Below the pieces are notes generated by a model, which was not told where the DNA came from, made no database searches, and saw nothing but the letters and a program-made list of their open reading frames with translations. From the NCBI GenBank assembly GCA_000004985.1, contig GG739113.1: a stretch of DNA of 7,723 nucleotides. The stretch is one strand, 5' to 3'. Below, piece after piece: positions 1,151 to 7,723 of this stretch. This DNA comes from Naegleria gruberi (Eukaryota). Each line of letters begins with the position of its first letter. Positions within the stretch are counted from its first letter, which is position 1. A program made the position numbers and the translations under genes.

Positions 1151-4100
1151 NNNNNNNNNNNNNNNNNNNNNNNNNNNNNNNNNNNNNNNNNNNNNNNNNN
1201 NNNNNNNNNNNNNNNNNNNNNNNNNNNNNNNNNNNNNNNNNNNNNNNNNNNNNNNNNNNNNNNNNNNNNNNNNNNNNNNNNNNNNNNNNNNNNNNNNNNN
1301 NNNNNNNNNNNNNNNNNNNNNNNNNNNNNNNNNNNNNNNNNNNNNNNNNNNNNNNNNNNNNNNNNNNNNNNNNNNNNNNNNNNNNNNNNNNNNNNNNNNN
1401 NNNNNNNNNNNNNNNNNNNNNNNNNNNNNNNNNNNNNNNNNNNNNNNNNNNNNNNNNNNNNNNNNNNNNNNNNNNNNNNNNNNNNNNNNNNNNNNNNNNN
1501 NNNNNNNNNNNNNNNNNNNNNNNNNNNNNNNNNNNNNNNNNNNNNNNNNNNNNNNNNNNNNNNNNNNNNNNNNNNNNNNNNNNNNNNNNNNNNNNNNNNN
1601 NNNNNNNNNNNNNNNNNNNNNNNNNNNNNNNNNNNNNNNNNNNNNNNNNNNNNNNNNNNNNNNNNNNNNNNNNNNNNNNNNNNNNNNNNNNNNNNNNNNN
1701 NNNNNNNNNNNNNNNNNNNNNNNNNNNNNNNNNNNNNNNNNNNNNNNNNNNNNNNNNNNNNNNNNNNNNNNNNNNNNNNNNNNNNNNNNNNNNNNNNNNN
1801 NNNNNNNNNNNNNNNNNNNNNNNNNNNNNNNNNNNNNNNNNNNNNNNNNNNNNNNNNNNNNNNNNNNNNNNNNNNNNNNNNNNNNNNNNNNNNNNNNNNN
1901 NNNNNNNNNNNNNNNNNNNNNNNNNNNNNNNNNNNNNNNNNNNNNNNNNNNNNNNNNNNNNNNNNNNNNNNNNNNNNNNNNNNNNNNNNNNNNNNNNNNN
2001 NNNNNNNNNNNNNNNNNNNNNNNNNNNNNNNNNNNNNNNNNNNNNNNNNNNNNNNNNNNNNNNNNNNNNNNNNNNNNNNNNNNNNNNNNNNNNNNNNNNN
2101 NNNNNNNNNNNNNNNNNNNNNNNNNNNNNNNNNNNNNNNNNNNNNNNNNNNNNNNNNNNNNNNNNNNNNNNNNNNNNNNNNNNNNNNNNNNNNNNNNNNN
2201 NNNNNNNNNNNNNNNNNNNNNNNNNNNNNNNNNNNNNNNNNNNNNNNNNNNNNNNNNNNNNNNNNNNNNNNNNNNNNNNNNNNNNNNNNNNNNNNNNNNN
2301 NNNNNNNNNNNNNNNNNNNNNNNNNNNNNNNNNNNNNNNNNNNNNNNNNNNNNNNNNNNNNNNNNNNNNNNNNNNNNNNNNNNNNNNNNNNNNNNNNNNN
2401 NNNNNNNNNNNNNNNNNNNNNNNNNNNNNNNNNNNNNNNNNNNNNNNNNNNNNNNNNNNNNNNNNNNNNNNNNNNNNNNNNNNNNNNNNNNNNNNNNNNN
2501 NNNNNNNNNNNNNNNNNNNNNNNNNNNNNNNNNNNNNNNNNNNNNNNNNNNNNNNNNNNNNNNNNNNNNNNNNNNNNNNNNNNNNNNNNNNNNNNNNNNN
2601 NNNNNNNNNNNNNNNNNNNNNNNNNNNNNNNNNNNNNNNNNNNNNNNNNNNNNNNNNNNNNNNNNNNNNNNNNNNNNNNNNNNNNNNNNNNNNNNNNNNN
2701 NNNNNNNNNNNNNNNNNNNNNNNNNNNNNNNNNNNNNNNNNNNNNNNNNNNNNNNNNNNNNNNNNNNNNNNNNNNNNNNNNNNNNNNNNNNNNNNNNNNN
2801 NNNNNNNNNNNNNNNNNNNNNNNNNNNNNNNNNNNNNNNNNNNNNNNNNNNNNNNNNNNNNNNNNNNNNNNNNNNNNNNNNNNNNNNNNNNNNNNNNNNN
2901 NNNNNNNNNNNNNNNNNNNNNNNNNNNNNNNNNNNNNNNNNNNNNNNNNNNNNNNNNNNNNNNNNNNNNNNNNNNNNNNNNNNNNNNNNNNNNNNNNNNN
3001 NNNNNNNNNNNNNNNNNNNNNNNNNNNNNNNNNNNNNNNNNNNNNNNNNNNNNNNNNNNNNNNNNNNNNNNNNNNNNNNNNNNNNNNNNNNNNNNNNNNN
3101 NNNNNNNNNNNNNNNNNNNNNNNNNNNNNNNNNNNNNNNNNNNNNNNNNNNNNNNNNNNNNNNNNNNNNNNNNNNNNNNNNNNNNNNNNNNNNNNNNNNN
3201 NNNNNNNNNNNNNNNNNNNNNNNNNNNNNNNNNNNNNNNNNNNNNNNNNNNNNNNNNNNNNNNNNNNNNNNNNNNNNNNNNNNNNNNNNNNNNNNNNNNN
3301 NNNNNNNNNNNNNNNNNNNNNNNNNNNNNNNNNNNNNNNNNNNNNNNNNNNNNNNNNNNNNNNNNNNNNNNNNNNNNNNNNNNNNNNNNNNNNNNNNNNN
3401 NNNNNNNNNNNNNNNNNNNNNNNNNNNNNNNNNNNNNNNNNNNNNNNNNNNNNNNNNNNNNNNNNNNNNNNNNNNNNNNNNNNNNNNNNNNNNNNNNNNN
3501 NNNNNNNNNNNNNNNNNNNNNNNNNNNNNNNNNNNNNNNNNNNNNNNNNNNNNNNNNNNNNNNNNNNNNNNNNNNNNNNNNNNNNNNNNNNNNNNNNNNN
3601 NNNNNNNNNNNNNNNNNNNNNNNNNNNNNNNNNNNNNNNNNNNNNNNNNNNNNNNNNNNNNNNNNNNNNNNNNNNNNNNNNNNNNNNNNNNNNNNNNNNN
3701 NNNNNNNNNNNNNNNNNNNNNNNNNNNNNNNNNNNNNNNNNNNNNNNNNNNNNNNNNNNNNNNNNNNNNNNNNNNNNNNNNNNNNNNNNNNNNNNNNNNN
3801 NNNNNNNNNNNNNNNNNNNNNNNNNNNNNNNNNNNNNNNNNNNNNNNNNNNNNNNNNNNNNNNNNNNNNNNNNNNNNNNNNNNNNNNNNNNNNNNNNNNN
3901 NNNNNNNNNNNNNNNNNNNNNNNNNNNNNNNNNNNNNNNNNNNNNNNNNNNNNNNNNNNNNNNNNNNNNNNNNNNNNNNNNNNNNNNNNNNNNNNNNNNN
4001 NNNNNNNNNNNNNNNNNNNNNNNNNNNNNNNNNNNNNNNNNNNNNNNNNNNNNNNNNNNNNNNNNNNNNNNNNNNNNNNNNNNNNNNNNNNNNNNNNNNN

Positions 4101-6059
4101 NNNNNNNNNNNNNNNNNNNNNNNNNNNNNNNNNNNNNNNNNNNNNNNNNNNNNNNNNNNNNNNNNNNNNNNNNNNNNNNNNNNNNNNNNNNNNNNNNNNN
4201 NNNNNNNNNNNNNNNNNNNNNNNNNNNNNNNNNNNNNNNNNNNNNNNNNNNNNNNNNNNNNNNNNNNNNNNNNNNNNNNNNNNNNNNNNNNNNNNNNNNN
4301 NNNNNNNNNNNNNNNNNNNNNNNNNNNNNNNNNNNNNNNNNNNNNNNNNNNNNNNNNNNNNNNNNNNNNNNNNNNNNNNNNNNNNNNNNNNNNNNNNNNN
4401 NNNNNNNNNNNNNNNNNNNNNNNNNNNNNNNNNNNNNNNNNNNNNNNNNNNNNNNNNNNNNNNNNNNNNNNNNNNNNNNNNNNNNNNNNNNNNNNNNNNN
4501 NNNNNNNNNNNNNNNNNNNNNNNNNNNNNNNNNNNNNNNNNNNNNNNNNNNNNNNNNNNNNNNNNNNNNNNNNNNNNNNNNNNNNNNNNNNNNNNNNNNN
4601 NNNNNNNNNNNNNNNNNNNNNNNNNNNNNNNNNNNNNNNNNNNNNNNNNNNNNNNNNNNNNNNNNNNNNNNNNNNNNNNNNNNNNNNNNNNNNNNNNNNN
4701 NNNNNNNNNNNNNNNNNNNNNNNNNNNNNNNNNNNNNNNNNNNNNNNNNNNNNNNNNNNNNNNNNNNNNNNNNNNNNNNNNNNNNNNNNNNNNNNNNNNN
4801 NNNNNNNNNNNNNNNNNNNNNNNNNNNNNNNNNNNNNNNNNNNNNNNNNNNNNNNNNNNNNNNNNNNNNNNNNNNNNNNNNNNNNNNNNNNNNNNNNNNN
4901 NNNNNNNNNNNNNNNNNNNNNNNNNNNNNNNNNNNNNNNNNNNNNNNNNNNNNNNNNNNNNNNNNNNNNNNNNNNNNNNNNNNNNNNNNNNNNNNNNNNN
5001 NNNNNNNNNNNNNNNNNNNNNNNNNNNNNNNNNNNNNNNNNNNNNNNNNNNNNNNNNNNNNNNNNNNNNNNNNNNNNNNNNNNNNNNNNNNNNNNNNNNN
5101 NNNNNNNNNNNNNNNNNNNNNNNNNNNNNNNNNNNNNNNNNNNNNNNNNNNNNNNNNNNNNNNNNNNNNNNNNNNNNNNNNNNNNNNNNNNNNNNNNNNN
5201 NNNNNNNNNNNNNNNNNNNNNNNNNNNNNNNNNNNNNNNNNNNNNNNNNNNNNNNNNNNNNNNNNNNNNNNNNNNNNNNNNNNNNNNNNNNNNNNNNNNN
5301 NNNNNNNNNNNNNNNNNNNNNNNNNNNNNNNNNNNNNNNNNNNNNNNNNNNNNNNNNNNNNNNNNNNNNNNNNNNNNNNNNNNNNNNNNNNNNNNNNNNN
5401 NNNNNNNNNNNNNNNNNNNNNNNNNNNNNNNNNNNNNNNNNNNNNNNNNNNNNNNNNNNNNNNNNNNNNNNNNNNNNNNNNNNNNNNNNNNNNNNNNNNN
5501 NNNNNNNNNNNNNNNNNNNNNNNNNNNNNNNNNNNNNNNNNNNNNNNNNNNNNNNNNNNNNNNNNNNNNNNNNNNNNNNNNNNNNNNNNNNNNNNNNNNN
5601 NNNNNNNNNNNNNNNNNNNNNNNNNNNNNNNNNNNNNNNNNNNNNNNNNNNNNNNNNNNNNNNNNNNNNNNNNNNNNNNNNNNNNNNNNNNNNNNNNNNN
5701 NNNNNNNNNNNNNNNNNNNNNNNNNNNNNNNNNNNNNNNNNNNNNNNNNNNNNNNNNNNNNNNNNNNNNNNNNNNNNNNNNNNNNNNNNNNNNNNNNNNN
5801 NNNNNNNNNNNNNNNNNNNNNNNNNNNNNNNNNNNNNNNNNNNNNNNNNNNNNNNNNNNNNNNNNNNNNNNNNNNNNNNNNNNNNNNNNNNNNNNNNNNN
5901 NNNNNNNNNNNNNNNNNNNNNNNNNNNNNNNNNNNNNNNNNNNNNNNNNNNNNNNNNNNNNNNNNNNNNNNNNNNNNNNNNNNNNNNNNNNNNNNNNNNN
6001 NNNNNNNNNNNNNNNNNNNNNNNNNNNNNNNNNNNNNNNNNNNNNNNNNNNNNNNNNNN
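1151..6059. other. run of 4909 N (scaffold gap of estimated size, or masked sequence); content cannot be assessed
   Basis: Uninterrupted N characters. The three more-than-1600-aa ORFs in the track (1038-6074, 1087-6081, 1115-6136 minus) exist only because N translates to X. Confidence 0.99.
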
Positions 6060-6079
6060 TTTAAAAGAAAATAGTGTCT

Positions 6080-6084
6080 AAAAA
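6080..6084 (-). terminator. T5 run (AAAAA on the plus strand) 11 nt downstream of the tRNA-Gly 3' end; candidate pol III terminator
   Basis: The minus strand reads ...TCGACGCA TCAGCTTATAA TTTTT. Its position and composition fit a pol III terminator of the interrupted tRNA gene. Confidence 0.4.
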
Positions 6085-6095
6085 TTATAAGCTGA

Positions 6096-6115
6096 TGCGT
6101 CGACCGGGAATTGAA
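6096..6115 (-). tRNA. 3' portion of an interrupted tRNA-Gly(GCC): T-loop, 3' half of the T-stem, 3' half of the acceptor stem, and discriminator A
   Basis: The reverse complement is TTCAATT-CCCGG-TCGACGC-A. TCGACGC pairs perfectly with the acceptor 5' half GCGTCGA found at 7484-7490 on the minus strand, and CCCGG pairs with the T-stem CCGGG at 7441-7445 on the minus strand. Confidence 0.8.
6108..6115. repeat. left copy of the 8-bp direct repeat GAATTGAA (target-site duplication in the tRNA T-loop)
   Basis: The identical octamer recurs at 7432-7439. Each copy supplies the same T-loop nucleotides (TTCAATTC) to one tRNA fragment. Confidence 0.75.
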
Positions 6116-6140
6116 ATTTCCTTTTTTGGAATTCATTTAA

Positions 6141-6251
6141 CTTTTAATTTTATGATGAAATTATGAATTTTAATATTATTCATGATGTGAAACATCATGT
6201 TGAATTCTGTTCATTATTTTTAATTCATGATGTGAAACATCATGTTGAATT
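6141..6251 (+). repeat. tandem repeat: three copies of a ~45-bp unit (TTTTTAATTCATGATGTGAAACATCATGTTGAATT). The first copy is shortened. Copies 2 and 3 each carry a perfect hairpin palindrome, CATGATG-TGAAA-CATCATG.
   Basis: Identical 29-mers occur at 6178-6206 and 6223-6251, and a shorter variant at 6141-6171. The palindromes lie at 6181-6199 and 6226-6244 (7-bp stems, 5-nt loop). Confidence 0.7.
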
Positions 6252-6287
6252 ATTAACAAATGTTGTTCTTCAATTTTTAATTGAATG

Positions 6288-6333
6288 TTGGAAATATCGG
6301 AAATATTGGAAAGTTGGAAATAAAAGTTGGAAG
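6288..6333 (+). repeat. degenerate microsatellite of about five or six octamers: TTGGAAAT, TCGGAAAT, TTGGAAAG, TTGGAAAT, TTGGAAG
   Basis: Seen directly in GTTGGAAATATCGGAAATATTGGAAAGTTGGAAATAAAAGTTGGAAG. Confidence 0.6.
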
Positions 6334-6336
6334 TTA

Positions 6337-6377
6337 GGTAACGGGTTTTGGAATTACCTAATGTGGAAATTGAATTC
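6337..6377 (+). repeat. dispersed motif copy B: GGTAACGGGTTTTGGAATTACCTAATGTGGAAATTGAATTC
   Basis: Alignable to copies at 6704-6731 and 7358-7395, and to the tRNA-insertion junction at 6104-6122. The shared core is AACGG(G)-W4-G(R)AATT(M)CC...AAATTGA. Confidence 0.5.
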
Positions 6378-6446
6378 AATTTTGAAATTGAATAAAAGTG
6401 AATTGTTTCAATAAATTTAAAAAACAAGTATTATTTTAAAATTGTA

Positions 6447-6704
6447 TTGAATGATTTAAGTAACACATATTTTGATAAGAATGAAATTATTCAATATAAA
6501 ATTGAAATTATGCCATCAAATATTATTCAACAATATTCTAAACGAAAGTTTCTTGTTAGAAAAGATAGTCAAAAGAACTCAAGATTTATTACATATCAAC
6601 CTGACGCTCAATCACCATCAAAGAAAACAAAGAAGAATAACATTATTGAAAGTGATATTGAAGATTTCGATTGCAATATTAAAGATATTGATGATTGGGT
6701 ATAG
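6447..6704 (+). CDS. doubtful 85-codon ORF (Lys-rich, acidic C-terminus, SPSKKTKK NLS-like patch) inside the insertion
   Basis: ATG to TAG with no stops, which is unlikely by chance in 70% AT DNA. However, the region is purine-rich and a second overlapping 92-codon ORF is open in another frame, so the absence of stops may be compositional. No recognisable domain. Confidence 0.2.
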   Translation: MNDLSNTYFDKNEIIQYKIEIMPSNIIQQYSKRKFLVRKDSQKNSRFITYQPDAQSPSKKTKKNNIIESDIEDFDCNIKDIDDWV

Positions 6705-6731
6705 GGGAACGGAATTTCCTAATTGGGAATG
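6704..6731 (+). repeat. dispersed motif copy A: GGGGAACGGAATTTCCTAATTGGGAATG, which abuts the stop codon of the 85-codon ORF
   Basis: Same family as 6337-6377 and 7358-7395. It also aligns with the junction sequence CCGGGAATTGAAATTTCCTTTTTTGGAATTCAT (6104-6136). Confidence 0.5.
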
Positions 6732-6853
6732 TCATCACACAATAAATTAAATTTATTATTTATTCATTGATGTTCACAAACTGTGAATTAACACATTACA
6801 TGATGAAACAATTCAAACATTTACTCAAACTTTAAACCTTAACATTAACCATC

Positions 6854-6872
6854 GGGTAACGGATTTTAATAC
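6854..6872 (+). repeat. shorter motif copy C: GGGTAACGGATTTTAATAC
   Basis: Shares GGTAACGG plus an A/T tract with copies A, B and D. Weaker than the others. Confidence 0.3.
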
Positions 6873-6890
6873 ATGTACTAGTATGTTGAT

Positions 6891-6904
6891 AATTGGTCGA
6901 CGCA
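6891..6904 (+). pseudogene. tRNA-Gly 3'-end-like fragment in the opposite orientation (AATT-GGTCGACGCA; the CCC of the T-stem is missing), inside the insertion
   Basis: The GC-rich 10-mer GGTCGACGCA is identical to the last 10 nt of the reconstituted tRNA and is preceded by the T-loop AATT. It is very unlikely by chance in an AT-rich context, though no BLAST was possible. Confidence 0.4.
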
Positions 6905-6918
6905 CAGAAATTTAAATA

Positions 6919-7313
6919 CAGCACGTTTACTTCAAATTTGACGCGTTTTTTGAAAGAAAATAAATTATTTAGAAAAAATTTTGTTGTTCTTCTGCTGTCA
7001 AATCCAAAATAAGCATTTCAATAGAACAACACCTAACCACTCGTTCTTACTCATTTCTACATATTTTTGAGAATGCTGCCACCCCAAGGGGTATGTCAAT
7101 GCAAGGATTCATAATTTGAAGTCAGATTTCAAAACTACCTTAATTCCATCGAGAAATTAGCATTTTGTTGAATAAAATATTATCGTTACAGATTCTTTTC
7201 AAATGAAGTTGAGTTTACTTGCCAAATCAAAATTGAAAGATGAAATACTTTAAATTTTAAAAAAAACAATTTTAATTTCCCCAAATCTTGTCAAACTTGA
7301 AGTAAACGTGCTG
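6919..7313. mobile_element. nested 395-bp MITE-like element with 24-bp terminal inverted repeats (CAGCACGTTTACTTCAARTTTGAC, 1 mismatch), flanked on both sides by TA (6917-6918 and 7314-7315); Tc1/mariner-like signature
   Basis: Left terminal inverted repeat at 6919-6942; right terminal inverted repeat at 7290-7313, which is the exact reverse complement apart from one A/G difference. The inverted repeat stops precisely at the TA dinucleotides. The interior is AT-rich and non-coding. Confidence 0.5.
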
Positions 7314-7357
7314 TAAACAGAATTAACAAGAATAAAAGCAAAATCCTACATAGAGTT

Positions 7358-7395
7358 GGAGAACGGGAAATGAAATTCCCACAAATTAAATTGAG
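7358..7395 (+). repeat. dispersed motif copy D: GGAGAACGGGAAATGAAATTCCCACAAATTAAATTGAG, containing the near-palindrome GGGAAATGAAATTCCC
   Basis: It matches 14 of 16 positions of the junction sequence GGGAATTGAAATTTCC (6106-6121) and aligns along its length with copy B. Confidence 0.5.
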
Positions 7396-7431
7396 AAGCA
7401 ACACAATCACAATAATTCATACTATCAAAAT

Positions 7432-7439
7432 GAATTGAA
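7432..7439. repeat. right copy of the 8-bp direct repeat GAATTGAA (target-site duplication)
   Basis: Identical to 6108-6115. This is the point where the tRNA 5' fragment stops matching tRNA sequence (7431 is T where the tRNA requires G on the plus strand). Confidence 0.75.
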
Positions 7440-7490
7440 CCCGGGTCACGGCGATGGCAACGCCGTATTCCACCACTAAACCATCGACGC
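7432..7490 (-). tRNA. 5' portion (about nt 1-61) of the interrupted tRNA-Gly(GCC): acceptor 5' half, D-arm, anticodon arm with GCC anticodon, variable loop, T-stem 5' half and T-loop
   Basis: The reverse complement is GCGTCGATGGTTTAGTGGTGGAATACGGCGTTGCCATCGCCGTGACCCGGGTTCAATTC. The anticodon stem CGGCG/CGCCG is perfect around the loop TTGCCAT (anticodon GCC). An A-box TGGTTTAGTGG is present, and there is an AT-rich TATA-like upstream flank (7491-7540 on the minus strand). Confidence 0.85.
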
Positions 7491-7723
7491 TTCTTAGTCT
7501 ATCAAATATAATAATAATAGATAGTGTAATTTAATAAACTGTCATCAATGAAGTGTGAACCAATGAATGGAACGCCACATTACCAAAAAAAAATATCAAC
7601 CCTAAACGGTGTATTTATCGTTTCAACATGCAGCCAAATTTTTCAACAAGAACAAAAAACAATAATTTATCACCAACAAGAATATAATGAGAATGATAAA
7701 TCAAGTTAATAGTAATAATGAAA

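Follow-up and report, generated by a model that had tools for sequence, protein, structure and literature searches.

MITEs derived from Tc1/mariner transposons include the Stowaway-like elements of plants, human MADE1 and the 'submariner' of Pandoravirus salinus. Tc1/mariner/pogo elements and the MITEs related to them are recognised by their specificity for TA, the obligate target of Tc1/mariner, and by ends that begin with 5'-CAG, as Tc1 and pogo/Tigger ends usually do. Other target-site duplications are expected of other groups: 8 bp for hAT, 3 bp (TWA) for PIF/Harbinger and TTAA for piggyBac. ISL2EU and Mirage-type elements also make 2-bp duplications, but these superfamilies show no specificity for TA and usually end in sequences other than those of the element described here; CACTA and CACTG are the typical ends of CMC elements. 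Insertion into tRNA genes is known from the Dada DNA transposons, which enter tRNA and snRNA genes, make duplications of 6-7 bp and target nucleotides 8-13 or the anticodon stem region of the tRNA (PMC8869645). For Naegleria, a literature search on MITEs, on Tc1/mariner and on tRNA-targeting elements found nothing specific. The locus analysed here supports a genuine TA-duplicating, non-autonomous inverted-repeat transposon insertion, an element of a well-known kind, which is nested in a repeat that itself splits a tRNA-Gly gene.

The window, that is, the whole stretch of DNA that was analysed, is a complete 7.7-kb (7723 bp) scaffold of the Naegleria gruberi draft genome. A run of N at 1151-6059 makes up 4909 bases (64% of the scaffold) and is presumably a sized gap separating a pair of short contigs; the inner element thus sits in a readable contig of 1664 bp at 6060-7723, with 27.8% G+C. 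The contig to the left of the run is protein-coding and the one to the right is repeat-rich. In the left contig, the ORF at 519-1016 matches 'predicted protein [Naegleria gruberi]' EFC35609.1 (NAEGRDRAFT_76734) at 100% identity. For this 166-aa predicted protein (519-1019) neither a Pfam domain nor a homologue besides itself was found. Its stop falls within GGGTAAGT, which resembles a 5' splice site, so that an intron that went unrecognised beside the gap may have cut the gene model short. The neighbouring ORFs gave nothing above threshold against Pfam, and the window matched no Rfam family, the split tRNA not being reported there.

A related copy of the repeat around the inner element was reached through an exhaustive phmmer search, by way of a 44-aa product (P0003) encoded on a metagenome contig (L007; ENA ERZ929261, run ERR1078381, 559 bp). 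No mention of the metagenome project, PRJEB11402, was found in the literature searched. This contig is 89% identical to the window overall and 91-97% identical within the aligned blocks, with internal indels, and it is to be read as a related copy at ~89-97% identity, not demonstrably as the same locus.

The inner element and its boundaries consist of the following features.

6917-6918, no strand: left copy of the TA target-site duplication; read directly, with a single TA at the related empty site in the metagenome contig.
6919-6942, plus strand: left terminal inverted repeat, CAGCACGTTTACTTCAAATTTGAC; from the sequence as read, inverted-repeat comparison and shuffles.
6943-7289, no strand: non-coding, AT-rich interior of 347 bp; from reading frames, six-frame protein search and subterminal complementarity.
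7290-7313, minus strand: right terminal inverted repeat; its reverse complement is CAGCACGTTTACTTCAAGTTTGAC.
7314-7315, no strand: right copy of the TA target-site duplication; read directly, with the empty site in the metagenome contig.

The preliminary description of this DNA had proposed a MITE-like element bounded by 24-bp terminal inverted repeats and by TA, and these boundaries are borne out. The right arm reads GTCAAACTTGAAGTAAACGTGCTG on the given strand, and the two arms are reverse complements at 23 of 24 positions, with a single A/G mismatch; TA lies directly outside both of them (6917-6918 and 7314-7315), so that the arms together with TA form an inverted repeat of 26 nt with 25 matching positions. 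The ends of the element are CAGCACGTTT and start with 5'-CAG (CAGCAC). Beyond the TA, only 3 of 30 flanking positions are complementary, and subterminal complementarity inside the arms is no better than in 169 of 500 shuffles. This abrupt loss of complementarity on both sides of the arms points to the limits of a recombination substrate and not to a diffuse palindrome.

The agreement of the arms was also said to lie beyond chance, and the shuffles uphold this: in none of 200 dinucleotide-preserving shuffles did the 24-mer of the arms occur twice with up to three mismatches, and while the longest inverted repeat in the 1664-bp contig, one mismatch being allowed, measures 26 nt, its counterpart in 100 shuffles averaged 14.2 nt and never exceeded 19 nt. 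A chance inverted repeat, or an artefact of assembly or cloning in a 1664-bp contig of an unplaced scaffold, could be suspected here, given that the contig is short and repeat-rich and adjoins an N run of 4.9 kb, but such an origin is hardly credible: the shuffles never come near 26 nt, the one-base difference between the arms argues against a fold-back chimera, and the metagenome contig independently shows both flanks to be contiguous.

An empty TA site in a related copy had been set beforehand as a test of the proposed insertion, and the metagenome contig contains such a site, colinear with the window and with a single TA. Its positions 496-525 align with window positions 6889-6918 (29/30) and its positions 524-559 with 7314-7350 (35/37), and the only bases common to both alignments are the TA at 524-525 of the contig. 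Through the insertion point the contig thus reads ...CAGAAATTTAAA-TA-AACAAAATTAAC.... When 6919-7315 is removed from the window and one TA is kept, the result aligns to the metagenome contig without gaps across the junction, and this model with one TA reaches a score of 113; leaving out the TA lowers the score to 102, and keeping both copies lowers it to 106. The TA is therefore a target duplication, as had been claimed, and not part of the repeat. It follows from the single TA and the gapless junction that 395 bp plus one TA represent an insertion relative to the related copy.

The same comparison could be read in the opposite direction, as a loss in the lineage of the metagenome contig, in which a palindrome-bounded segment native to the host repeat would have been deleted between two TA dinucleotides, either mediated by a hairpin or by microhomology. 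Two sequences cannot polarise the difference between them, and further indels separate the metagenome contig from the window. A deletion of this kind, however, would have to match the outer limits of the 24-bp inverted repeat to the base with a homology of only 2 bp available; the other indels between the two sequences are not bounded by inverted repeats, and a deletion this precise would equal the excision of a transposon. Loss is accordingly regarded as very unlikely.

The element itself (6919-7313) is 395 bp long and has 29.6% G+C. Its 347-bp interior is AT-rich and contains no ORF, as had been noted, the longest frame from stop to stop being 48 aa, and a six-frame translation of the element gave no match at E<=10 against 5.8 billion proteins. 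Two details of the preliminary description fared less well. The run of six T is present but lies at 6946-6951, three bases into the interior and not at its first base, and the long stem-loop that had been expected is absent, the centroid structure pairing the terminal 26 bp only. Folded as single-stranded DNA, the element has a minimum free energy of -46.9 kcal/mol, compared with -33.2 +/- 4.2 kcal/mol for shuffles (z = -3.3).

Considering the TA duplication and the 5'-CAG ends, it is probable that 6919-7313 is a non-autonomous class II (cut-and-paste) transposon of 395 bp, most likely a deletion derivative or a look-alike of an N. gruberi element of the Tc1/mariner/pogo type. The superfamily, the transposase partner and the membership of a multi-copy family are what we infer for an element known here from one copy. 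MITEs of the hAT, PIF/Harbinger and piggyBac groups do not fit, as none of the flanking 8-mers (TTTAAATA/TAAACAGA), 3-mers (ATA/TAA) or 4-mers (AATA/TAAA) form a matching pair and the expected duplications are thus missing. The earlier label 'Stowaway-type' stands if it is taken loosely, for a MITE that duplicates TA; in the strict sense of the plant family it does not, since the conserved end CTCCCTCCGT is absent and there is no long hairpin.

A second possible origin is a non-autonomous transposon of another superfamily that makes 2-bp duplications (ISL2EU/IS4EU, or the Mirage branch of CACTA-Mirage-Chapaev), for which TA would be one of several possible targets. In favour of such an origin, the TA specificity rests on one insertion, and a RepeatModeler table for N. 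lovaniensis reports CMC-EnSpm together with PiggyBac, LINE, DIRS and Gypsy and lists no Tc1/mariner class (PMC6125883). A random 2-bp duplication, however, would be TA in only ~1/9 of cases at this base composition. The duplicated dinucleotide is exactly the one that Tc1/mariner requires, and the ends are CAGCAC, not CACTA or CACTG. An origin in one of these superfamilies is therefore considered unlikely, and assignment to the Tc1/mariner/pogo type is preferred.

Scans for the end pattern were made in collections that hold no Naegleria genome and therefore say little about copies. The 24-nt end pattern had no match in viral contigs, and the 19-nt end with TA had three chance matches in JGI metagenome contigs and three in prokaryotic genomes; none of these six extends past the 19-mer and none has a partner arm.

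If the element moved in the manner of its presumed relatives, a DD(E/D) transposase encoded elsewhere would bind both 24-bp terminal inverted repeats, excise the element and integrate it at a TA dinucleotide, and repair of the 2-nt staggered cut would then duplicate the TA. In the order of events proposed for this locus, the host repeat would first have entered the T-loop of a tRNA-Gly(GCC) gene and duplicated 8 bp, and the inner element would have landed in the host repeat later.

The element had been described as nested, and this proves correct on two levels: it sits in a repeat that has other copies, and this repeat is itself inserted in a tRNA-Gly gene. The outer insertion comprises the following features.

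6096-6115, minus strand: 3' part of tRNA-Gly(GCC), tRNA positions 52-71, 20/20 match.
6108-6115, no strand: left copy of the 8-bp duplication, GAATTGAA; tRNA positions 52-59, T-loop.
6116-7431, no strand: host insertion of 1316 bp, a repeated element that interrupts the tRNA gene and is bounded by the two tRNA-Gly parts.
7432-7439, no strand: right copy of the 8-bp duplication, GAATTGAA; the same 8 bp as at 6108-6115.
7432-7490, minus strand: 5' part of tRNA-Gly(GCC), tRNA positions 1-59, 59/59 match.

The two tRNA parts (7490 to 7432 and 6115 to 6096) have eight T-loop bases, TTCAATTC, in common, and removal of 6116-7439 yields a 71-nt tRNA-Gly(GCC) with a perfect cloverleaf. The exactness of both parts and the restored cloverleaf together indicate that the 1316-bp segment was inserted in the T-loop with a duplication of 8 bp. 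ARAGORN reports a tRNA-Gly(GCC) on the minus strand at 7420-7491, the 3' part of which is wrong, so that the prediction is a malformed hybrid; since the gene that tRNA finders report at this locus is malformed, the nested split tRNA-Gly serves as a warning for annotation.

Apart from the inner element and its extra TA, the host insertion measures 919 bp. At least three copies of this repeat are known, namely those in the window, at the locus of a paralogue and in the metagenome contig, and insertion in a tRNA gene is seen for one of them. The paralogue (P0002, XP_002678484, NAEGRDRAFT_66102), on a 507-kb N. gruberi scaffold, is 97% identical to the product of the ORF at 6402-6701 (100 aa). The metagenome contig lacks window positions 6404-6607, which make up most of this frame, so that the frame is unlikely to be a real gene; the host repeat as a whole (6116-7431) is probably non-coding. 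The host insertion itself showed no terminal inverted repeats of significance, 66 of 300 shuffles scoring as well.

Several further observations were made in and around the host repeat. In the metagenome contig, positions 205-493 form a second unit bounded by inverted repeats, with a perfect arm of 29 nt (205-233 / 465-493), a further arm of 18 nt (247-264 / 436-453) and ATA as the flank at either end; of this unit, the window retains the left arm alone, at 6689-6750. The unit could be a further small element with inverted repeats, or else a part of the host repeat that folds back. The motif AACGG occurs five times in the window, always on the plus strand (6340, 6708, 6858, 7362 and 7605), compared with an estimate of ~0.7 expected from base composition. 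Its contexts are alike (GGTAACGGG, GGGAACGGA, GGTAACGGA and AGAACGGGA), it is often followed by a palindrome resembling GGAATT..CC, and two of the sites are conserved in the metagenome contig. An exact direct repeat of 29 nt is present at 6178-6206 and 6223-6251, 45 bp apart, and each copy holds a small palindrome, CATGATG-TGAAA-CATCATG.

Another observation concerns positions 6895-6904, 12 bp to the left of the inner element, which read GGTCGACGCA and are identical to the last 10 nt of tRNA-Gly, in opposite orientation. The metagenome contig has GGTCGACACA at this place, from which it follows that the segment is part of the host repeat rather than a remnant left locally. The match to the end of the tRNA may be due to chance (BLAST E = 0.37).

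What does this locus add to the picture of mobile DNA in Naegleria? The repeat content of Naegleria genomes is only ~2.5-5% (PMC6125883). On the one hand, a sparse catalogue gains one verified insertion of the cut-and-paste type, together with the corresponding empty site, and if the inner element belongs to a multi-copy family, the transposase that moves it would be traceable through the ends, which could also be put to use as a genetic marker or tool in Naegleria. On the other hand, the T-loop insertion of the host repeat is a more unusual lead than the inner element, and the split tRNA-Gly locus offers a starting point for asking whether a Naegleria repeat targets tRNA T-loops. It could even be imagined, as a long shot, that two layers of mobility meet in this Pol III gene, the host repeat representing a Naegleria family that inserts specifically in the T-loop of tRNA-Gly and duplicates 8 bp there, and the inner element belonging to a still active TA-specific family moved by an undescribed Naegleria transposase. 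A host family that targets the T-loop would, if true, have no described counterpart among the target-specific elements of Heterolobosea.

Compared with known systems, the host insertion shares with Dada DNA transposons its position inside a tRNA gene and the short duplication of tRNA sequence. It differs from them in that the duplication is 8 bp long and lies in the T-loop at positions 52-59, and in that the host element of 919 bp lacks both a transposase and clear terminal inverted repeats; Dada is ruled out by the length and the position of the duplication. The inner element has a 2-bp duplication and terminal inverted repeats in common with ISL2EU and Mirage-type non-autonomous elements. 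Unlike plant Stowaway it lacks the end consensus CTCCCTCC..., and unlike many Stowaway MITEs it does not form a long, nearly perfect hairpin. With the MITEs derived from Tc1/mariner, the inner element shares its size of 395 bp, its non-coding sequence, its terminal inverted repeats of ~24 bp, the TA duplication and the CAG ends.
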